From IMG/VR virus record IMGVR_UViG_3300046692_000091, positions 143,261 to 207,260 of that record: a stretch of 64,000 bases of DNA; one strand, written 5' to 3'. The notes beneath the pieces were generated by a model. It was not told where the DNA came from. It ran no database searches and was given only the letters and a program-made list of their open reading frames with translations. The position numbers were made by a program, and so were the translations under genes. Source of the stretch: a virus. Positions 9,172-62,135 of this stretch are shown here, in pieces. Every line of letters begins with the position of its first letter. Position 1 is the first letter of the stretch.

Positions 9172-10554
9172 ATGCTTATTCAGGAAGTGTTAGGGTTATA
9201 CCACAATGCAATAGAGATGCTCAGTTCGGGTGACTCAACAGTCAAAGGTTTCATGACGTTGGGTGTCATGGGTCTGTTGGGTTATTTGGGGCGTACGATA
9301 CCCCAAACAATCTGGGCGTTCATCAAACGTAACACGATTTCATCGATGACTTTCACTCGCGCAGGTTCATATTCCATGGACATGCAGAACTACGTAGAGT
9401 TCATGCGTTGGTTCTCACAATCCAAGTGGGCTAAATATGATCGCAATCGACGTGTAACATTCGATCGGAATGACCCAGCTTTTGGACCAGGTACTGGCTT
9501 CCACTGGTTTGTTTGGAAAGGTCGTTACTTCTGGTTTAATGTTGTCCGTTTGAATTCCTCCGGTACCGATATCGAGAAAGAAGAATTCACACTGTATACA
9601 TTCGGTCGTACCACTAAACCATTCGAAGAACTGGTGGAAGAGTTCCGTATCAAGCCATGCAAGAAATCGATACGTATCTATGCCCCATCGAATGACGGTT
9701 GGAACTATCAGGGGCGACTACGGTTGGACGCTGATGAAACACTGATCATCGATCCAGAAGTAGAGAAAGAGTTCTTTGGTTCTATCGACTGGTATCTGGC
9801 AAACGAACCATGGTACCGTAAACGTGGATTGGCTTATAAACACACTGTCGTGTTGCATGGTCCACCTGGTACCGGTAAGACTTCGTTGATCAAACGTGCA
9901 GCCCGGAAGTACAAGCGGGATATTCACTTCCTGAACTTGGCTACCCATGGTCGTCAGTTGACTGATCTGATGGGTAAGTTGTCGGCTGGTGACATTCTGT
10001 GCATTGAAGACTTTGATGATGTCAAGTCGTTGCACCGTCGCACTGGTCCGAAGAAGATGGAAATCGGTGAACTGGACATCGGTTCCGATAAGAAACCAGA
10101 AGCGTTGTTGATGGACTGCGAGATTCAACTCAGTACCTTCCTCAACGTTCTGCAAGGCGTTGTAGAGCTCGATGATATCATTATCGTGCTGACTACTAAC
10201 CACCTGGAACTGATCGATCCAGCGGTCTACCGTCCGTCCCGTGTGAACAAACTGATCGAAGTGCTACCTCTGAAAGATCCGGAAGTTAAGCGCTATATCG
10301 ACACGATGTATGATAATCCTACTTACGATCGTAATGTAATGTACCCAGACGTTCCAGCTTCTACCCTGGCTGGTATCTTCATGGAGCACCCGAACGATCA
10401 CCTGGCTTTCATTGATAAGCTAGATTCGTTGGACGACAAATACGTCGCGGAGAACTATGCTCTACAACCAGAGCCCCCGCGCCCACCTTCCAAGAAAAAT
10501 AAGGACCCTTCTCCAATAGGAGGACAGGTTCTTGAAACCGTAGAGGCAGCGTAA
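9172..10554 (+). CDS. membrane-anchored AAA+ ATPase, Bcs1-like
   Basis: N-terminal TM helix GFMTLGVMGLLGYLG; Walker A HGPPGTGKTSLIK; Walker B ILCIEDFD; BCS1-like ...IHFLNL. Confidence 0.7.
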   Translation: MLIQEVLGLYHNAIEMLSSGDSTVKGFMTLGVMGLLGYLGRTIPQTIWAFIKRNTISSMTFTRAGSYSMDMQNYVEFMRWFSQSKWAKYDRNRRVTFDRNDPAFGPGTGFHWFVWKGRYFWFNVVRLNSSGTDIEKEEFTLYTFGRTTKPFEELVEEFRIKPCKKSIRIYAPSNDGWNYQGRLRLDADETLIIDPEVEKEFFGSIDWYLANEPWYRKRGLAYKHTVVLHGPPGTGKTSLIKRAARKYKRDIHFLNLATHGRQLTDLMGKLSAGDILCIEDFDDVKSLHRRTGPKKMEIGELDIGSDKKPEALLMDCEIQLSTFLNVLQGVVELDDIIIVLTTNHLELIDPAVYRPSRVNKLIEVLPLKDPEVKRYIDTMYDNPTYDRNVMYPDVPASTLAGIFMEHPNDHLAFIDKLDSLDDKYVAENYALQPEPPRPPSKKNKDPSPIGGQVLETVEAA

Positions 10555-30371: not shown

Positions 30372-30604
30372 CCCATCTTGTCCCTGATGAGAAAGTCGAT
30401 GCTGCTGCAAAGCTATTCATCGACTGGTCACGCAGTGTAGATGAAGATGAGTTCGAAGCCACCTTCAAAGGTCTTGATGGTATCCTTGATATTCTAGCTA
30501 AGGCGATGATTATCCCATTGGATACTAAAGATCGTCTCACTGCTGCGATTGGCCGTATCAATGAAGAAGAGGAAAAGAAAACCTTCGAAGACTTCTTCAA
30601 ATAA
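30368..30604 (+). CDS. small acidic protein (GTG start), no INS tail
   Basis: GTGA overlap with upstream stop. Confidence 0.4.
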   Translation: MTHLVPDEKVDAAAKLFIDWSRSVDEDEFEATFKGLDGILDILAKAMIIPLDTKDRLTAAIGRINEEEEKKTFEDFFK

Positions 30605-30674
30605 AGAACTACTAATTCCCGTAATACAATGCGTGAATGTTTCGCGCTAATCATTCTCAATAGGAAGCACCGCA

Positions 30675-49582: not shown

Positions 49583-49881
49583 TGGAAATCCCAACAAGGC
49601 AAGATCGCATTCAAAGCCTGTATGGTGAGGCTATCGAGACGTACTCGGTAGTCTTAAACAAAGCTATCCTGGAGGACAGTGAGGAAACGGATGGTAAGGG
49701 TTGTTCTTATATCACTACCCGCTTGAATGCTGACGGAGATTATGTGGACTCACGTGTTATCAAATATCTCGATGAGCATTATCGTAAAGCTGGTTGGATC
49801 ATTGAGCAGCATTCCGATGCAGATAGTGATAAGCAACACATCCGTATCTATTTTCTGCAGCAATCCGTTAAGGGTGATTAG
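49570..49881 (+). CDS. hypothetical protein (103 aa)
   Basis: ORF. Confidence 0.45.
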   Translation: METLMEIPTRQDRIQSLYGEAIETYSVVLNKAILEDSEETDGKGCSYITTRLNADGDYVDSRVIKYLDEHYRKAGWIIEQHSDADSDKQHIRIYFLQQSVKGD

Positions 49882-49992
49882 TACTCTGTATGCAATAGTA
49901 TATAGACGAACTGGAATTCCGTAGAACATCTCCCAACTTATCACCTACCCGTCGGTGTGTTGGTGCTACGTGAATTCCACCTATTTAATACT

Positions 49993-50016
49993 GTCCACCT
50001 GCGGGTGGGCTTTATG
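49993..50016 (+). terminator. hairpin + CTTTATG
   Basis: ccacctgcgggtgggctttatgcc. Confidence 0.5.
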
Positions 50017-50032
50017 CCGCTTTAGGGAACAT

Positions 50033-54865: not shown

Positions 54866-56125
54866 TTAACCTTTTACGCAGAGAATTTGTTTGAGAGTAT
54901 GGACGATGTCCACGAGTTGTTCTTGTGCAGACATTACGTCTTCGATGTTCTTGTAAGCTTTTGGTGTTTCATCGATGACAGAGATATCCTTACGACATTC
55001 TACACCAGCTGTATCACGGACATGATCTTCCAGGGTGAATGTCTTAGCAGCCTGAGTACGGGACATGACTCGGCCAGCTCCGTGTGAACACGAGCAGAAA
55101 GAATCACGGTTACCTTTACCACGGACGATGAAAGACTTAGCGCCCATCGAACCAGGGATAATCCCGAGTGTACCTTTATCTGCGTTCACTGCACCCTTAC
55201 GAGTTACCAGAACGTTGTTACCGAAGTGGCGTTCTTCTGATACGTAGTTGTGGTGGCAGTTGATGGCCGACATATCGGAATCGATTGGCAGACCTAGAGT
55301 ACGGTGGATAGCACCAAGAGTAGCATGCATCATGATCGAACGGTTAAGTGCAGCGAAGCGTTGTGCCCAGGACACGGCTTCGATGTAGTCGTTGTAATAT
55401 TGCGAACCTTCGGGGAGGTAAGCGAGATCACCATCTGGCAGATGAATGAAGAAACGTTTCATTTCTTCTTTTGCTTTCGAGATAAAGTAAGTACCGATTG
55501 CGTTACCGATACCACGAGAACCAGAGTGCAGCATCACCCACACTTGATCGGATTCATCCAGACAGATCTCGATGAAGTGGTTACCTGTACCGAGAGTACC
55601 TACATGGTTCCATGCACGAGCTGCAGCTTTCGCCAACTTAGGATGACGTTCTACAATACGTTCCAGATGCTTACGCAGTTTCTCTGCTTCATCACGGATA
55701 GCTTGAGATTGGTGAGTGAACACGGATACCGTACCAAATGCACCACGATCGTTCTTCCCACCGTTGTCAGTACGGCCATGAGGCACTGAGGCTTCGATAG
55801 CGGCACGCAAATGGCCAAGAGAGGTCGGTAGTGCTGTGGACTTAAAAGTAAGGCGCTGCGCAGCCATACCACAACCGATATCAACACCTACTGCGGCTGG
55901 AATGATTGCGCCTTTAGTAGCAACCACAGAACCCACTGTTGCACCTTTACCCAAGTGTACGTCGGGCATCACAGCAATGTGCGAATAGATGAATGGGAGG
56001 GCAGCAATGTTCTTGAGTTGAGAAATTGCTTCTTTCTCTACTGGTACGCCAACGGTCCAGCCTTTGATTGGTTTAGAACCTGGTTCTACTGTATCACCAA
56101 TCAGTTCAAATGTTTTCTGTTTCAT
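54866..56125 (-). CDS. rtcB: RNA-splicing ligase RtcB (3'-phosphate/5'-hydroxyl RNA ligase)
   Basis: Full-length RtcB signatures MPDVHLGKG, GCGMA, HSGSRG, CHHNY, IIPGSMG, SCSHGAGR; SD 'gtgaggctttatATG'. Confidence 0.85.
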   Translation of the reverse strand: MKQKTFELIGDTVEPGSKPIKGWTVGVPVEKEAISQLKNIAALPFIYSHIAVMPDVHLGKGATVGSVVATKGAIIPAAVGVDIGCGMAAQRLTFKSTALPTSLGHLRAAIEASVPHGRTDNGGKNDRGAFGTVSVFTHQSQAIRDEAEKLRKHLERIVERHPKLAKAAARAWNHVGTLGTGNHFIEICLDESDQVWVMLHSGSRGIGNAIGTYFISKAKEEMKRFFIHLPDGDLAYLPEGSQYYNDYIEAVSWAQRFAALNRSIMMHATLGAIHRTLGLPIDSDMSAINCHHNYVSEERHFGNNVLVTRKGAVNADKGTLGIIPGSMGAKSFIVRGKGNRDSFCSCSHGAGRVMSRTQAAKTFTLEDHVRDTAGVECRKDISVIDETPKAYKNIEDVMSAQEQLVDIVHTLKQILCVKG

Positions 56126-56160
56126 ATAAAGCCTCACGCGGATGGAAAGAGGAATTGTTA

Positions 56161-56186
56161 CATACACTGACTTTGCCAGTATTATT
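56161..56186 (-). promoter_or_regulatory. minus-strand promoter-like bipartite motif (AATACTGG-N11-TATGT) upstream of rtcB
   Basis: RC = taataATACTGGcaaagtcagtgTATGTaac; one of 5 copies. Confidence 0.45.
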
Positions 56187-56190
56187 AAAC

Positions 56191-56217
56191 GGCATAAGGG
56201 TTCCCCGGAGGGAACCC
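56191..56217 (-). terminator. hairpin + CTTATGCC (minus strand)
   Basis: RC gggttccctccggggaacccttatgcc. Confidence 0.5.
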
Positions 56218-56231
56218 GAATACTTACAGGA

Positions 56232-56549
56232 CTACTTGTTACTCAGATGGCATTGAAGATCTGCCATGACGTCGTCCGCAACCTTACGTCGCCCTAACAT
56301 TCCTGTTAGTTCTTCAAGGGTGCATTCTTCAGGGTCCCATTGACCTTCTAGTCCCATACAGGAGCAGTGTGATCCATGGACTTCATAGTACTTACCATTC
56401 TGTTCGTAGAGCACGTAGGCGGACCCACTGTAATCTTCGTAAGTATAGTCAGCGTGTATGATAGTTACCCCTTCAAGCTCAGACATCCGTACATCAAAAC
56501 TCAATGCTACGTCTTCAATATCACCTTCGGACCAATCGTTGTAAAACAT
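56232..56549 (-). CDS. hypothetical acidic protein (105 aa)
   Basis: SD 'aaaggtatagaacATG'. Confidence 0.5.
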   Translation of the reverse strand: MFYNDWSEGDIEDVALSFDVRMSELEGVTIIHADYTYEDYSGSAYVLYEQNGKYYEVHGSHCSCMGLEGQWDPEECTLEELTGMLGRRKVADDVMADLQCHLSNK

Positions 56550-56611
56550 GTTCTATACCTTTAAGCGTGATTACGATGCTCGTAATCTTCATTTGCTTAT
56601 TGCGTATAGTC

Positions 56612-56640
56612 CTGTATAATGTATCTCTACCAGTATTTCT
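56612..56640 (-). promoter_or_regulatory. minus-strand promoter-like motif ~75 nt upstream of 56549 gene
   Basis: RC = gaAATACTGGtagagatacatTATACagg. Confidence 0.4.
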
Positions 56641-56961
56641 TTATCTGGATGAGACAGCATAATGAGAACCCTAAGGCCCCCTATGCTTAAGTAATCTACA
56701 ATACCAATGGCCGGCCTGCTCTATCGCCCACCTATAGGGAGCGATCATTGGTAAATGTAGCGCCACGAGTTGGCAGTATCTTTCCAGTCACGGACACCAC
56801 TCATCGGGTGCCTCTATGGACCATCAAGATAGTTGAACTTATGACTCGGCATCAGAGAGACTGTCACATCTCTAAGCACCATTCGGGTTGAAGCTTGACA
56901 GGCTTCGTTTTGTAGGTCTTCCTCCTTGTGTGTAGTAACCGCGCAACGCTACACTCTGGTC

Positions 56962-56988
56962 GTATACTATTACGTTCTCAGTATTTTA
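56962..56988 (-). promoter_or_regulatory. minus-strand promoter-like motif overlapping radical-SAM stop
   Basis: RC = aaAATACTGAgaacgtaatagTATACgac; faces a 435-nt noncoding region. Confidence 0.45.
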
Positions 56989-57870
56989 TTTCAGGAAAGT
57001 ACCACAACTTGCTTGTACATCAGTACCAACGCGAGGAATTAGTTTTACACGTGCATTGGGTAATCGGCGTTTGATGTAACGATGTAAGTAATCGATATGG
57101 CCTTCTACTGGTTCACGAGAGTAATGCCCTTCTGGTGGATTGTACCGAACGATGTTCCAATTAACCTCTAACTGATATCCATCGATCACATCCAGGATAG
57201 CTTTAACATCAGCAAGGTTATCATTTTCATGTTCAATGAAAGCGTAGTGGATCTTCGGAACTTTGCCTGTGTGCAGCTGCCAGTCTTTGAGGATTGCGAA
57301 TGCATCTCGTGGGTAACCCGCTTTAGGTAACCAACGTTTACGAAACCGATCATTCAATGAGTAGACCGAATAATAAATCTCGGGGTATACCTCTGGATCA
57401 GTGAACACCGATTCAAGTGACCGGCGACTAAACTCTTCTGGCATGATAGTAGATATCAGGAACTTTGATTCAAGTCCATATCTGGCTGCACGTTTCTTTA
57501 AGCCACGCAAGATCTCATCGGCATTACTTAGAAAGATCTTATTAGCTAAAGGTTCGCCTCGTGCCATGAAGTTGAAATGGACCATCTTAGCTGGATGCTT
57601 GTCGGCATAGTATCGTAGGACTTCATCTGCTTGCTGCCAGAATTCTTCAATCGTGGTATCACGTAGTTTATTCTGACCTGTTGCAGTTAACCAGCACATC
57701 CGGCAAGCTTGCTTACAACCTGTCTGAGACGACAAGTAAACAATGAAGTAGTCATCAACCCGACGTACATATCGTGCCTCTAGCATCCCTGGGTGATCTT
57801 CAAAGCGGTGTTCGAAGTTTACTGATTGATCGAGTTGGGATACATGTTGTTTAAAGATTAGATTATCCAT
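56986..57870 (-). CDS. radical SAM enzyme (294 aa)
   Basis: 4Fe-4S motif TGCKQACRMCW (CxxxCxxC); SD 'agggactattagctaATG'. Confidence 0.6.
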   Translation of the reverse strand: MDNLIFKQHVSQLDQSVNFEHRFEDHPGMLEARYVRRVDDYFIVYLSSQTGCKQACRMCWLTATGQNKLRDTTIEEFWQQADEVLRYYADKHPAKMVHFNFMARGEPLANKIFLSNADEILRGLKKRAARYGLESKFLISTIMPEEFSRRSLESVFTDPEVYPEIYYSVYSLNDRFRKRWLPKAGYPRDAFAILKDWQLHTGKVPKIHYAFIEHENDNLADVKAILDVIDGYQLEVNWNIVRYNPPEGHYSREPVEGHIDYLHRYIKRRLPNARVKLIPRVGTDVQASCGTFLK

Positions 57871-58256
57871 TAGCTAATAGTCCCTATTTGCCATCCATCC
57901 AGACGTAGTGAGATATAACCTTTTCGACCTTCTTCTACATACACTGCAGTTGGTTCATATGCCCGGTAAGCTTTTTGTCGATCGGTAAACCCATTACGAA
58001 TATCATGCATTGCCATTTCTAATTTGGAACACATTTGTAGCGTGCTATATGCGCTGTCTCCACGCATGTCATTGAAATATGGCTGTAGTGCTGATCCATA
58101 AGCAACTACGGCTTCATTGATTGGTTGTGGACCTTTGTACCGGGTTAGCTCAGCTTCATAGGCATCGAACGCTGCTGTCTGTTTACGTCTAGCTATGCCT
58201 TGGTTAAGTCGTTCAACCACTGCTCGTTCGCGTGGCCGAAATCTGTTTGGGCGCAT
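57870..58256 (-). CDS. hypothetical protein (128 aa)
   Basis: SD 'aaaaggaatatacaATG'; TAATG overlap with radical SAM gene. Confidence 0.5.
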   Translation of the reverse strand: MRPNRFRPRERAVVERLNQGIARRKQTAAFDAYEAELTRYKGPQPINEAVVAYGSALQPYFNDMRGDSAYSTLQMCSKLEMAMHDIRNGFTDRQKAYRAYEPTAVYVEEGRKGYISLRLDGWQIGTIS

Positions 58257-58282
58257 TGTATATTCCTTTTGTATGATTGCGG

Positions 58283-58310
58283 GCATAAAGGCTATCCCGA
58301 AGGATAACCC
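58283..58310 (-). terminator. hairpin + CTTTATGCC (minus strand) after tRNA-Thr
   Basis: RC ggttatccttcgggatagcctttatgcc. Confidence 0.5.
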
Positions 58311-58335
58311 AATGCGAGGGGCTCTAAGGCCAATA

Positions 58336-58411
<76 letters not shown>

Positions 58412-58416
58412 TAATT

Positions 58417-58505
58417 TGGCGGAAGCATAGAGATTCGAACTCTAGGGGCTGTTACACCCGACGGTTTTCAAGACCGTTGCCTTAAGCCATCTCGGCCATG
58501 CTTCC
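58417..58505 (-). tRNA. tRNA-Ser (anticodon TGA), type II long variable arm
   Basis: RC = GGAAGCATGGCCGAGATGGCTTAAGGCAACGGTCTTGAAAACCGT...TAGAGTTCGAATCTCTATGCTTCCGCCA. Confidence 0.85.
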
Positions 58506-58520
58506 TGTGTTGCTTTTGTA

Positions 58521-58606
58521 TGGTGCGGACAGAGAGACTCGAACTCTCACGCCCTAAGGGCGCTGGAACCTAAATCCAGTGCGTCTACCAATTCCGCCAT
58601 GTCCGC
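58521..58606 (-). tRNA. tRNA-Leu (anticodon TAG), type II
   Basis: RC = GCGGACATGGCGGAATTGGTAGACGCACTGGATTTAGGTTCCAG...GAGAGTTCGAGTCTCTCTGTCCGCACCA. Confidence 0.85.
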
Positions 58607-58636
58607 TGTATATTATTACACACCAAGTATTTTTTT
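58607..58636 (-). promoter_or_regulatory. minus-strand promoter-like motif immediately upstream of tRNA-Leu(TAG)
   Basis: RC = aaAATACTTGgtgtgtaataaTATACa followed directly by the tRNA 5' end GCGGACA. Confidence 0.5.
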
Positions 58637-58637
58637 A

Positions 58638-59369
58638 TTAGACTACGCTGGGGGTGTAATTATTGGTGTAACGCACGTAGTTACTAATTCTTACATTACC
58701 TAGGTAACGAGGAACGTTATTAGCGTTGCTGTTTAGAGCACCTAGGTATAACGTAGACAAGTTAGCGAAGTTACTAGCTGGTCCACTCTGGAAGAAACCA
58801 GATAATGTTCCACCTGAAACTCCAGGCTGCATGTCTTGTAGTACGCCGTTAATATAGAATCTTAGGCGGCGATTAGTATCGCAGGTCATTGCGTATTTAG
58901 TGACTATATTCGTAAAGGTGTTGAAGGTAACTGCCGGGTAACGACACTCTGACTTCGCTCCACTGTTGCTGTTATCAGAGAACATCAATAGATTACCATA
59001 ACCGGCATCACCAAAGCGCATGGTGAAACCTTTGAGTAATGACGAATCTGTCATATAGAATTCGTTTGTCCAAGCCGTAGCATTACCTGGGCGAAGTTCT
59101 GACCACTCGATTGTCCAATTGGTACTAGACAAATCCAAGAGTGGGTTGAAAGCCATGAATAAACGCGAACCACTACCACCAGCTGTAGGCATAGATAGGG
59201 TTGGTTTATTATCAATTAGTGTTGTGTTACTCACCACTGCGCCAGCGGATATTGTGATGGGTCTATTACTAACAGTCTCGGTCACTGTGGCCATGTCAAT
59301 ATACAGGATCACATCACCTGTTTCTGGCGGGACCGAGCTCGAACTTGGTGATAGTAGTAATTCATACAT
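58638..59369 (-). CDS. concanavalin A-like/LamG-like domain protein (243 aa), paralog of 61416-62135
   Basis: Shared blocks with paralog: MYExLL, TGDVxxLYxD, NWTxEWS, RxGDxGxxxLxxxDN, RxSNxxRYTxNYTP. Confidence 0.5.
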   Translation of the reverse strand: MYELLLSPSSSSVPPETGDVILYIDMATVTETVSNRPITISAGAVVSNTTLIDNKPTLSMPTAGGSGSRLFMAFNPLLDLSSTNWTIEWSELRPGNATAWTNEFYMTDSSLLKGFTMRFGDAGYGNLLMFSDNSNSGAKSECRYPAVTFNTFTNIVTKYAMTCDTNRRLRFYINGVLQDMQPGVSGGTLSGFFQSGPASNFANLSTLYLGALNSNANNVPRYLGNVRISNYVRYTNNYTPSVV

Positions 59370-59433
59370 GTTGATTATCCTGGTTATATAAACATATAAT
59401 TAGGTGATAGTCAAAATCCCCTTTGCATAATAC

Positions 59434-59459
59434 AGCATAAAGCTTCCCCAAAGGGAAGC
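59434..59459 (-). terminator. hairpin + CTTTATGCTG (minus strand) after tRNA-Leu(TAA)
   Basis: RC gcttccctttggggaagctttatgctg. Confidence 0.5.
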
Positions 59460-59467
59460 ACTATGTT

Positions 59468-59554
59468 TGGTGCGGGGAGCGGGATTCGAACCCAGCGAGC
59501 CTGTACAGGCGGCGGCTTTTAAGGCCGCTATGTATTCCGCTCCATCATCCCCGC
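59468..59554 (-). tRNA. tRNA-Leu (anticodon TAA), type II; slightly irregular T-stem
   Basis: RC = GCGGGGATG...GCGGCCTTAAAAGCCGC...GGGTTCGAATCCCGCTCCCCGCACCA. Confidence 0.7.
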
Positions 59555-60408
59555 GTGTAACTAAATTCGGTCCCAGCATCCAGGATTCAAGCCCTGGTTA
59601 TCAACGAACACGGGGTCGTTGGTAGATCGCCGCTGGGCGAGCTTTTCATCCCAATGTACAGCTTGAGCTGGTCGCGGCATTCCGCTAGAGGTCAAACCGT
59701 TCCGAAGGGTCTATCTACTTACTCGCCTTACAACGCTTCAGAGTGATGGAGGGCAAGTAAAAGAATCGGGGTAACCCACTATTCCCTTGGCAGCGGTCAT
59801 GGTTTAAGATGACTTGCGGAATAGCTCGTTACATGGGTGCACTATAGCGTACACGTCGCTGCCTTTCGGCCTTCTCATCGATTACCAGCCGCAGCTAGTT
59901 CTCTGTGTATGGCCCAGTAGCCTCTTTACGGGAGTCATCTACTGGGAAGGTTACCACTACAGGACTATCACCTTCTATGGCCTGGTATTCCAACCAGTTC
60001 ATGTAACCAAGACGGACATCTGATCCGTTGCAGCCGAGTCGTAACGCTTCTTCGGTATGGCGCCTTAGTAGTCAGGACTATCTGACCTTTGGGGTATCAT
60101 GAGTACGGGCTTCGAGTTTCCCTGATATTCCACTATTCTAGTCTTTTGTGGAACGTCATTGGGTATCATTCGTAGATCTATACAAGTGTAACTCTGTGCC
60201 CTAGTCTGAGGATTAATCAGACACCTGTATTGATCCGAGCCTATCCCTTCCAGGCTAGGTCTTCACACTCCCACTTCTGGGGGAATGCGTATGTAAAAGT
60301 TTGATGGAACGATCCTCTACCTTCATCTATTCGGACTTAGGCGACCTTTTCAGCACAGTGGGGTGGAGTGCACTTACCCAACATCCTACCATGTCTTTCA
60401 CATGCTCT

Positions 60409-61083
60409 TTATTCGTGCGTAGTAGACAGCTCAGAGATAATGCAGATCGAACCATCTTCAACCGGAGTGGTATCGGAGTAATCAACCTGATTGTAAACAC
60501 CACCATGGAACTGGAAGGTTTCATATTTCCACGAACTATCTAGCTTCAGCACTGGGCAGACTGACTTACGACCTTGGCAAAGCACTGACGCCGATACGGA
60601 ACCAGCAGCTGTGACATGTAAGCTAATCTTGAATGGTACACCCAATGGAACGTCTTCTATTAGTGTAAAGTTGTTTATTAGTGCGTCATCGAAGTTAGCT
60701 CGGAAACCAGCTGTGATCTTCCCTTTATTCCAGAAGACTTTCAGTGGCGGAGTTGTAGCATCTTTGACATGGACTTGTGCAATTACCACTTTCTTAGCCG
60801 AGTTGACTTTAGTAACAGTCATCTCTTGGCGAGACCAGTGATGTGCTGCGCTAGTAAGAGACCAATAAGCTGGTTCTTTCCATTCACAGCGTGTGCGATG
60901 TGTACTTTTGCTGGACGCCCCTAATGTGGGCGCAGAGAGTTGAATAGAACCGTCTTCCAATTGACTGACCACTTCTGGACATCTTACCAAGGCTTCCGAA
61001 CCGAGGAGCTCCAATGCAACCGGATTCTCATCAGAGACCGGTAATGGAGTAGCAATCAAATAGTTACTGATATCAACGAACAT
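60409..61083 (-). CDS. beta-jelly-roll protein, tentatively polysaccharide lyase family 7 (alginate lyase)-like
   Basis: VIAQVHVKD resembles PL7 Q(I/V)H; FQFHGGVYNQ resembles PL7 YFKAGVYNQ. By-eye call only. Confidence 0.35.
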   Translation of the reverse strand: MFVDISNYLIATPLPVSDENPVALELLGSEALVRCPEVVSQLEDGSIQLSAPTLGASSKSTHRTRCEWKEPAYWSLTSAAHHWSRQEMTVTKVNSAKKVVIAQVHVKDATTPPLKVFWNKGKITAGFRANFDDALINNFTLIEDVPLGVPFKISLHVTAAGSVSASVLCQGRKSVCPVLKLDSSWKYETFQFHGGVYNQVDYSDTTPVEDGSICIISELSTTHE

Positions 61084-61101
61084 TTTAACTCTCTTTTGAA
61101 A

Positions 61102-61177
61102 TGGCGGGCATCCAGGGAGTCGAACCCCGAACCGACGGATTTGGAATCCGTTACTCTGCCAATTGAGCTAGACACCC
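61102..61177 (-). tRNA. tRNA-Trp (anticodon CCA)
   Basis: RC = GGGTGTCTAGCTCAATTGGCAGAGTAACGGATTCCAAATCCGTCGGTTCGGGGTTCGACTCCCTGGATGCCCGCCA. Confidence 0.85.
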
Positions 61178-61185
61178 GAATGAAG

Positions 61186-61267
61186 AAAGGGAACAGGAAT
61201 CGAACCTGCGTTTCCGGCTTGGTACTTATGGTGGCCACCGGTGTCCTAGGCCGCTAGACGACCCCTC
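61186..61267 (-). ncRNA. atypical tRNA-like element (possible pseudo-tRNA or noncanonical tRNA)
   Basis: RC has acceptor GAGGGGT/TCCCTTT and T-arm GCAGGTTCGATTCCTGT but ~33 nt of palindromic CCGGTGGCCACC...CCGG where the anticodon arm should be. Confidence 0.3.
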
Positions 61268-61384
61268 TCACAAACTTGGTCGGGTTTTTGTTAAACCAGG
61301 CTAACCGATATCCCTGGTCCCTATCGAGTAAGCTCTAGGGGAGTCTTACTCTTACGCTCGTTTGGAGACTTAACGACAGTCTCT

Positions 61385-61412
61385 CGTATACTATTACACT
61401 GCCAGTATTTTG
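61385..61412 (-). promoter_or_regulatory. minus-strand promoter-like motif upstream of tRNA-like element and tRNA-Trp
   Basis: RC = aaAATACTGGcagtgtaatagTATACgag. Confidence 0.5.
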
Positions 61413-61415
61413 TTA

Positions 61416-62135
61416 TTACAACTCTAGTGGGCCAGGAGTATAGTTACGTGTATATCTAGCGAAGTTACTAAGTCGAACTCTACCGTGATGCCCAGGAACA
61501 GCACGTACCGAACTACCGTTCGAATCACCAAATATAAGCGAGGTGATATTGATCAGTGCTGTTGGTGTAATCGTTTGCATAATGTAGGTTCCATTAGCTG
61601 CACCCTTAGCCAATGGGAGTCTCTGTCCATTACGGTAAATAAAGATCTGACCATTCTTACATACAAATGCCCATCTACTCAAATTACTAACTAAGGCAGC
61701 TTTAGTGAATTGGGTATTATAACAATCGGCTGGTGCAGAGGCTGTGTTATCCCCCAAATGGAGTCTGTCTAAGAAACCAGAGTCACCATACCTGAAGAAT
61801 AGTCCACGGCCAGCTGTTGAACTAGTCATTGAAAATTCAAGGGCATAGGCAGTAGGGGCGGTGTCGTTTATAGATGACCATTCTAATGTCCAGTTTATTG
61901 CACTTAAGTTGAGAGGGGCTGCAAATGTCATCACCTGTTTAGCTGCAACCGTTGGGTATTGCATACTGCCTTGCCCATCGATTAAATACCCAGCGTCAGC
62001 TATTGCTCCACCGGTATTGTTGGTGACGGTACCTAACCCAGATAGATCGGTGGCGGTAACTGGATCATACAAGAATAACACATCCCCTGTGTCCTCCACT
62101 GGTAAACTACCCCCAGCTAATAATGCCTCATACAT
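61416..62135 (-). CDS. concanavalin A-like/LamG-like domain protein (239 aa), paralog of 58638-59369
   Basis: Same conserved blocks as 58638-59369. Confidence 0.5.
   Translation of the reverse strand: MYEALLAGGSLPVEDTGDVLFLYDPVTATDLSGLGTVTNNTGGAIADAGYLIDGQGSMQYPTVAAKQVMTFAAPLNLSAINWTLEWSSINDTAPTAYALEFSMTSSTAGRGLFFRYGDSGFLDRLHLGDNTASAPADCYNTQFTKAALVSNLSRWAFVCKNGQIFIYRNGQRLPLAKGAANGTYIMQTITPTALINITSLIFGDSNGSSVRAVPGHHGRVRLSNFARYTRNYTPGPLEL

Follow-up and report, generated by a model that had tools for sequence, protein, structure and literature searches.

A conserved bipartite motif resembling phiKZ middle promoters precedes tRNAs, structured RNAs and RtcB in DNA of a Psa21-like jumbo phage

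Motif copies and the units that follow them

The viral DNA analysed here, a stretch of 64,000 nucleotides (nt) from IMG/VR record IMGVR_UViG_3300046692_000091 (positions 143,261 to 207,260; hereafter the window), carries seven transfer RNAs (tRNAs) on the minus strand at its right end, in an island that also holds the gene of an RtcB RNA ligase. A bipartite promoter-like motif, AATACTGG-N11-TATAC, had been described in this island in five minus-strand copies (the original prediction), and direct reading of the minus strand from 56000 to 61600 confirmed all five positions. We found a sixth copy, on the plus strand. The putative promoters and the features that belong to them are given below in window coordinates, with open reading frame abbreviated as ORF.

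61386 to 61409, minus: putative promoter copy 1, AATACTGGCAGTGTAATAGTATAC; predicted start A at 61387
61269 to 61387, minus: 5′ leader RNA of the copy 1 unit; starts ACGAGAG, then a small hairpin GAGACT..AGTCTC
59433 to 59459, minus: phiKZ-type terminator closing the copy 1 unit after tRNA-Leu(TAA); GCTTCCCTTTGGGGAAGC then TTTATGCTGT
58608 to 58631, minus: putative promoter copy 2, AATACTTGGTGTGTAATAATATAC; predicted start A at 58609
58336 to 58606, minus: tRNA-Leu(TAG), tRNA-Ser(TGA) and tRNA-Thr(TGT), the unit of copy 2
56962 to 56985, minus: putative promoter copy 3, AATACTGAGAACGTAATAGTATAC; predicted start 56963
56650 to 56963, minus: ORF-less structured RNA of about 310 nt from copy 3; ends at a hairpin plus TTATGCTG terminator near 56655 to 56690
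56614 to 56637, minus: putative promoter copy 4, weaker, AATACTGGTAGAGATACATTATAC; predicted start 56615; 13 bits on the Psa21-trained matrix
56190 to 56222, minus: phiKZ-type terminator directly upstream of copy 5; GGGTTCCCTCCGGGGAACCC then TTATGCCG
56160 to 56183, minus: putative promoter copy 5, AATACTGGCAAAGTCAGTGTATGT; predicted start G at 56161
54866 to 56125, minus: RtcB RNA ligase gene, first in the copy 5 unit; PF01139, E 5e-128
49880 to 49903, plus: putative promoter copy 6, additional to the five first described, AGTACTCTGTATGCAATAGTATAT; predicted start 49902
30604 to 30631, plus: possible variant from the original prediction, unproven, AAAGAACTACTAATTCCCGTAATACAATG

As had been predicted, all minus-strand copies face downstream units on their own strand, and each of them follows a stop codon or a terminator, the terminators being G+C hairpins followed by TTATGCYG; hairpin-plus-TTATGYYG sites flank the units, and this form matches the one described for phiKZ (PMC10914365). 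Copy 1 follows the stop of the ORF at 61416 to 62135 and heads the longest series of elements, comprising a leader of about 118 nt, a tRNA-like element, tRNA-Trp, an alginate-lyase-like ORF, an ORF-less RNA of about 850 nt, tRNA-Leu(TAA) and a terminator. Copy 2 comes after the ORF at 58638 to 59369, its TATAC ending one base before tRNA-Leu(TAG), and copy 3, which shares bases with the stop codon of a radical-SAM ORF, heads the ~310-nt structured RNA, which has its own terminator. Behind that terminator lies copy 4, at the head of a 105-amino-acid ORF (56232 to 56549) that is itself ended by a terminator; copy 5 follows the latter, with its predicted start 36 nt before the RtcB ATG (56125), and its unit continues with ORFs of 305 and 608 amino acids. 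Copy 6 heads an ORF-less RNA of about 120 nt that ends at a terminator. The fullest matches to the motif stand before RNA genes, whereas the two copies that head protein genes are weaker and read GATACATTATAC and GTCAGTGTATGT.

When up to two mismatches were allowed, AATACTGG-N11-TATAC matched the window seven times against 1.54 expected, a count reached in none of 100 shuffles, and the two extra matches, both on the plus strand, look like chance; a stricter regular expression returned only the five minus-strand copies. A matrix built solely from Psa21 sites placed these five among its six best matches in the window (13 to 39 bits), the remaining one being copy 6 (14.2 bits; matrix position 49882), which has an ortholog at Psa21 position 279481, and in ten shuffles nothing exceeded 8 bits. 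No copy overlaps an ORF and the window is about 88% coding, so that six non-coding placements would arise by chance with a probability of about 3e-6. Duplication of a cassette or a mobile element was excluded as the origin of the copies, because their flanks are unrelated and the boxes alone are common to them.

The motif is thus present, with one correction to the consensus first given for it, which is exact in only two of the five copies; the conserved core is longer. Three copies share AATACTnn-N4-GTAATA(G/A)TATAC, that is, an A-rich tract, TACT, six free positions and then GTAATAGTATAC. An A-rich tract with TAC(T/C) lies upstream of the predicted start in all six window copies, and the spacing from TAC(T/C) to TAT(G/A) is exactly 13 nt in every one; the fourth base gives TATA in four of the five minus-strand copies and TATG in the other. 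A possible plus-strand variant that had been placed at 30612 to 30640 does have an A-rich tract, TACT and GTAATA, but its spacer is one base longer, CAATG replaces TATA or TATG, the matrix misses it and no ortholog turned up in Psa21.

Conservation and likeness to phiKZ middle promoters

The nearest record is that of Pseudomonas phage Psa21, to which a third of a query of 7 kilobases (kb) aligned, with about 74% nucleotide identity. Psa21 is a phage of 305 kb annotated with chimallin, PhuZ and at least eight RNA polymerase beta-like genes, and the window is syntenic with its positions ~231 to 295 kb. The phage collection searched contained no nearer genome, and an identical RtcB protein was met only on a Logan contig of 9.6 kb. 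By its sequence, then, the window is from a relative of Psa21, a phiKZ-like nucleus-forming Pseudomonas jumbo phage with RNA polymerases of its own. A matrix made from the window copies alone gave, for 300 kb of Psa21, eight strong sites confined to 279 to 300 kb, in the tRNA island. An exact scan of IMG/VR for AATACT-N6-GTAATAGTATAC returned 14 loci, nearly all on contigs of 278 to 317 kb, and every matrix match in these loci is upstream of, and co-stranded with, a tRNA cluster or an ORF-less unit. Phages D6, RVTF4, Phabio and Noxifer likewise have the motif upstream of tRNAs, and in these phages, in Psa21 and in several uncultured jumbo-phage contigs its positions correspond to those in the window.

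From about 12 genomes we compiled 42 non-redundant sites, whose consensus is wAAAwAAATACT-N6-GTAATAGTATACGAGAG. TAC is invariant in all 42, the T at −3, A at −2 and T at −1 are near-invariant, and the spacer varies freely; in alignments of orthologous sites, likewise, the boxes are invariant, the 6-nt spacer is free and the flanks have diverged. Orthologs of copy 1 were found in Psa21, D6, RVTF4 and five further loci (our labels L010, L014, L015, L021 and L023), those of copy 4 in L014, L015, L017 and L029, and those of copy 5 in Psa21, L024 and L029, and the arrangement of copy 2, with a gap of 3–5 nt to the tRNA, is kept in Psa21, D6, RVTF4, L015 and L074. A natural negative control was provided by 80 RtcB loci (915 kb of diverse viral contigs), among which matches of at least 14 bits occurred only in seven Psa21-like loci; the matches lie on the RtcB strand with a single exception, the divergent plus-strand small RNA site.

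The published middle motif of phiKZ is AAanTTACc near −24, and in P62M and P78M the start lies at TATG (PMC4666361), and TACT has been reported ~22 nt upstream of phiKZ starts, after an A-rich repeat, with start sites at the phage tRNAs (PMC8244752). Read directly from the phiKZ sequence, P78M is AAAATTACC-N14-TATG, the gp54 region contains AATAATACTCAGATTGTAATAATATG and tRNA-Asp is preceded by AAAATATTACTGGTTATGTAATACTATG; tRNA-Leu, tRNA-Thr and gp293 have TAC(T/C)-N13-TATG, with the same spacing before tRNA-Asn and gp54. The matrix from the Psa21 family detects the phiKZ sites, and in the phiKZ tRNA region its seven best matches share the strand of the genes. Shared between the window and phiKZ are the A-rich tract with TAC(T/C), the distance of 13–14 nt, TAT(G/A) at the start and, at several phiKZ sites (tRNA-Asp, tRNA-Asn and gp54), the GTAATA box, as well as a minus-strand tRNA island near one genome end and the co-occurrence with TATATTAC early promoters and hairpin-plus-TTAT terminators. 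The two differ in that the fourth base in the window is usually A (TATAC) and not G, and in that conservation of the −10-like box GTAATAGTATAC and of the initial transcribed bases (ACGAGAG) is far stronger here than in the 'weak' motif published for phiKZ. The middle promoters of phage 201phi2-1, mapped by ONT-cappable-seq, are described as mirroring the phiKZ motif and driving tRNA-Leu, and one small RNA lies directly upstream of a tRNA in that phage (PMC11512511); the window motif is consistent with the motif descriptions in print and with reports of tRNA-associated start sites (PMC4666361, PMC8244752, PMC10914365, PMC11512511).

The motif copies also differ from the other promoter types with which they might be confused. 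Seven TATATTAC sites lie elsewhere in the window (3077, 7675, 21738, 27829, 35028, 40027 and 51328), all on the plus strand and before runs of small plus-strand ORFs, and their conserved AT-rich upstream half (e.g. AAAAAATCTGAAATCTATATTAC) makes them close matches to the phiKZ early promoter beside gp54. An AT-rich stretch ending in TATATTAC, the hallmark of phiKZ-type early promoters, is not what the motif copies have, and the upstream half in particular is missing from them, in agreement with the claim that they are distinct from the plus-strand class. The late promoters of phiKZ start at TATG, with G as +1, and TAT(G/A) in the window likewise overlaps the predicted start, probably in the same polymerase pocket; unlike the late promoters, which have no conserved upstream sequence, the window motif has its most conserved part in the upstream boxes. 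T4 middle promoters, which combine a MotA box at −30 with a sigma-70 −10 element, are comparable as bipartite, phage-specific elements of the middle class that have an upstream box in place of the −35. Their polymerase, however, is that of the host, acting with MotA and AsiA, whereas this phage family has its own polymerases, and sequence and spacing are unrelated. T7-type promoters (TAATACGACTCACTATAG) resemble the motif in an upstream AATAC, a TATA at the start and conservation of the first bases transcribed; a T7-like promoter was nonetheless rejected, as the T7 boxes are separated by 7 nt and those of the window motif by 14 nt, a difference of 7 nt. The Psa21 annotation contains no gene labelled as a single-subunit RNA polymerase, and one gene is labelled only 'polymerase'.

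The match in layout to phiKZ, together with the matching early promoters and terminators, supports the reading of the copies as promoters as well as the proposal of at least two promoter classes, be they temporal or served by different RNA polymerases, which agrees with what is known of this phage family. Going by sequence, the motif is a further member of the known phiKZ middle promoter class, which is the class to be expected here, and we consider it probable (at about 0.8) that it represents phiKZ 'middle'-type promoters that would be transcribed by a multisubunit RNA polymerase of the phage itself and not by the sigma-70 polymerase of the host. Promoter activity, the exact start, middle timing and the polymerase used are what we infer from these likenesses.

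Proposed recognition and rival explanations

In the layout that we propose, the A-rich tract and TACT would occupy about −24 to −17 (TACT at −20 to −17), followed by the free 6-nt spacer, an A/T-rich box GTAATAG at −10 to −4 and TATA or TATG at −3 to +1, the fourth base being +1. In the promoter complex of the non-virion polymerase of phiKZ, bases −3 to +1 sit in a pocket of gp123, the DNA is deformed from −11 and opens at −8, and gp68 contacts the backbone at −18/−19 and −22/−23 (PMC12809450). These contacts coincide with motif positions, so the boxes fall on known contact points, and by analogy TAT(A/G) might be held in the pocket of the beta-like subunit and TACT and the A-tract where the sigma-like subunit touches DNA, possibly with an extra factor. 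Each promoter would restart transcription after a stop codon or terminator, and the tRNA island would thus be a string of short units producing tRNAs, structured non-coding RNAs and the RtcB operon.

Several points weigh against this interpretation. An RNA polymerase gene was not found within the 64-kb window, and the polymerase system is therefore deduced from relatives. Purified non-virion polymerase of phiKZ failed to transcribe middle promoters in vitro (PMC4666361), so that a further factor or a different form of polymerase may be needed. Four of the five minus-strand copies have TATA and not TATG, and the phiKZ late promoter P119L needed every TATG base in vitro. With the upstream element placed as published (−22 to −24), the start would come to lie 2–3 nt downstream of the one predicted here. 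Lastly, the strong form in Psa21 is nearly confined to one 20-kb island and may be a special subclass and not the general middle promoter.

The failure of the purified enzyme also speaks for the idea that these are real phage promoters read by the injected virion polymerase, or by a modified form of it, in which case the tRNAs and other RNAs would be made from very early in infection and the motif would not represent a 'middle' class of the non-virion polymerase; a modified virion polymerase has been listed as an option for the middle promoters (PMC4666361), TACT-type and tRNA-associated phiKZ starts were seen in differential RNA sequencing (dRNA-seq) that tracked the early phase (PMC8244752), and the early core TATATTAC, when reverse-complemented, looks similar to the GTAATA(G)TATA box. 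We nevertheless regard this as unlikely, given that the copies lack the AT-rich upstream half by which early promoters are defined and are clearly separate from the seven early-type sites, and that the element to which the non-virion polymerase binds agrees with TAT(G/A) at the start (PMC12809450).

Markedly less credible is that the motif is not itself a promoter and instead binds a phage DNA-binding regulator, or acts at the RNA level as a processing signal between units. Recruitment by a DNA-binding protein is a published idea for middle promoters (PMC4666361), and a weak inverted repeat in the fullest copies, ATACT-N11-AGTAT, could suit a dimeric protein; the repeat is missing from copies 4 and 5 and from the phiKZ sites, and we rejected a hairpin or palindrome as the conserved feature. 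The motif is oriented like the downstream unit at every one of the 42 compiled sites; read-through RNA containing it would be scarce, because most copies come after terminators; and the distance to tRNA 5′ ends clusters at 3–5 nt or at a short hairpin leader, as for a start site. We give the least credence of all to promoters for host polymerase with sigma-70 or an alternative sigma factor. TAGTAT or TATAC loosely resembles a −10 hexamer, but a consensus scan (TTGACA/TATAAT-like, 16–18 nt) was empty at all copies and no −35-like element stands at that spacing, which bears out the original claim that the motif is distinct from sigma-70; the region has 8 sigma-70-type sites against 13 expected, fewer than its shuffles. 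Moreover, phiKZ develops in the presence of rifampicin and without need of host polymerase (PMC4666361, PMC7598289), and unrelated phage contigs that carry RtcB lack the motif.

RNAs of the island and what the motif offers

The original prediction had one copy abutting tRNA-Leu(TAG) so closely that transcription would begin at or beside the mature tRNA, and this is correct, the predicted start of copy 2 (58609) being 3 nt before the tRNA 5′ end (58606). The corresponding distance is 3–5 nt in the window, Psa21, L015, D6 and RVTF4, L074 has the arrangement of the window, and in D6 a predicted start lies 3 nt before tRNA-Ser(TGA). The published motif positions would imply a start 2–3 nt downstream of ours, in which case transcript and mature tRNA would share their 5′ end. 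This led us to a more speculative proposal, which we hold to be doubtful: in Psa21-like nucleus-forming phages the full motif (AAATACT-N6-GTAATAGTATAC) could be a dedicated high-strength promoter subclass for RNA genes, with starts at or within a few bases of mature tRNA 5′ ends and hence little or no processing by RNase P, and could also mark an island of undescribed structured RNAs, one of them about 850 nt long, that act with the tRNAs and RtcB in RNA repair or in the takeover of translation.

The transcripts predicted from strong promoters (61369 to 61387 and orthologous sites) share a start of ACGAGAG followed by a hairpin of 5–6 base pairs, the stem of which covaries between phages (GAGACT/AGTCTC, GAGGT/ACCTC, GTGAA/TTCAC) around a conserved loop, GYCGTTA. 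In the same unit, the tRNA-like element (61185 to 61268, minus) reaches 36 bits against the tRNA model of Rfam, its anticodon arm being enlarged by an insertion of 20 nt; with introns allowed, ARAGORN calls it tRNA-Gly(ACC) with an 11-nt intron. It lies in the same island as the RtcB ligase, is found also in L010 and, judged by spacing, appears absent in L014 and Psa21. Directly upstream of tRNA-Leu(TAA), Psa21 (L001, ~9237 to 9285) and D6 have an apparent 5′ half of another tRNA-Leu (GCCCGGATGGTGAAATCGGTAGACACACC...), which the window lacks.

Between the alginate-lyase-like ORF and tRNA-Leu(TAA), the ~850-nt ORF-less stretch (59555 to 60408, minus) is a candidate for a new large structured RNA beside tRNAs, as judged from comparative sequence. 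Its conservation extends to Psa21, D6, RVTF4, Phabio (3′ part only) and IMG/VR contigs, none of which has it annotated, and RNAalifold on six sequences gave 138 pairs, long-range helices included, of which 49 keep pairing via two-sided changes. There was no meaningful match in Rfam, and the RNA is neither GOLLD nor ROOL. A group I intron was considered on account of R- and S-like strings, CAGACUA and GAUAGUCC, and the idea was dropped because covariation puts both strings in hairpins and not in a P7 pairing. Within a variable insert of the same RNA, 55 nt (59951 to 60005, minus) match positions 330–384 of the bacterial 23S ribosomal RNA (rRNA) model (40 bits, E 2.5e-9); this match was not recovered in two narrower searches of the region, and the insert is absent in L015 and Psa21. 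Across the motif and the ORF-less units, Rfam returned only tRNAs, the 40-bit local 23S rRNA match and a 15-bit group II fragment.

The ~310-nt RNA of copy 3 lies two units before RtcB and has conserved counterparts in L014, L017, L015, L029 and Psa21; two-sided changes compensate 28 of its 40 predicted pairs, and Rfam gave no match. The ~120-nt ORF-less unit on the plus strand (49902 to 50030), between copy 6 and a hairpin-plus-TTATGCCG terminator, is a candidate small RNA whose predicted start is conserved at Psa21 279501.

A review of 2020 held that the middle and late promoters of jumbo phages that encode their own polymerases are not predictable by bioinformatics. The middle-type promoter described here is information-rich and is conserved across at least five Pseudomonas jumbo-phage lineages besides that of the window. 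With the motif, transcription units can be annotated in jumbo phages not yet studied, and it delimits several apparently new RNAs, and the distance of 3–5 nt to tRNA 5′ ends raises a testable question on the maturation of phage tRNAs. Finally, the set of sites constitutes a clean template for finding what recognises middle promoters in this phage family.

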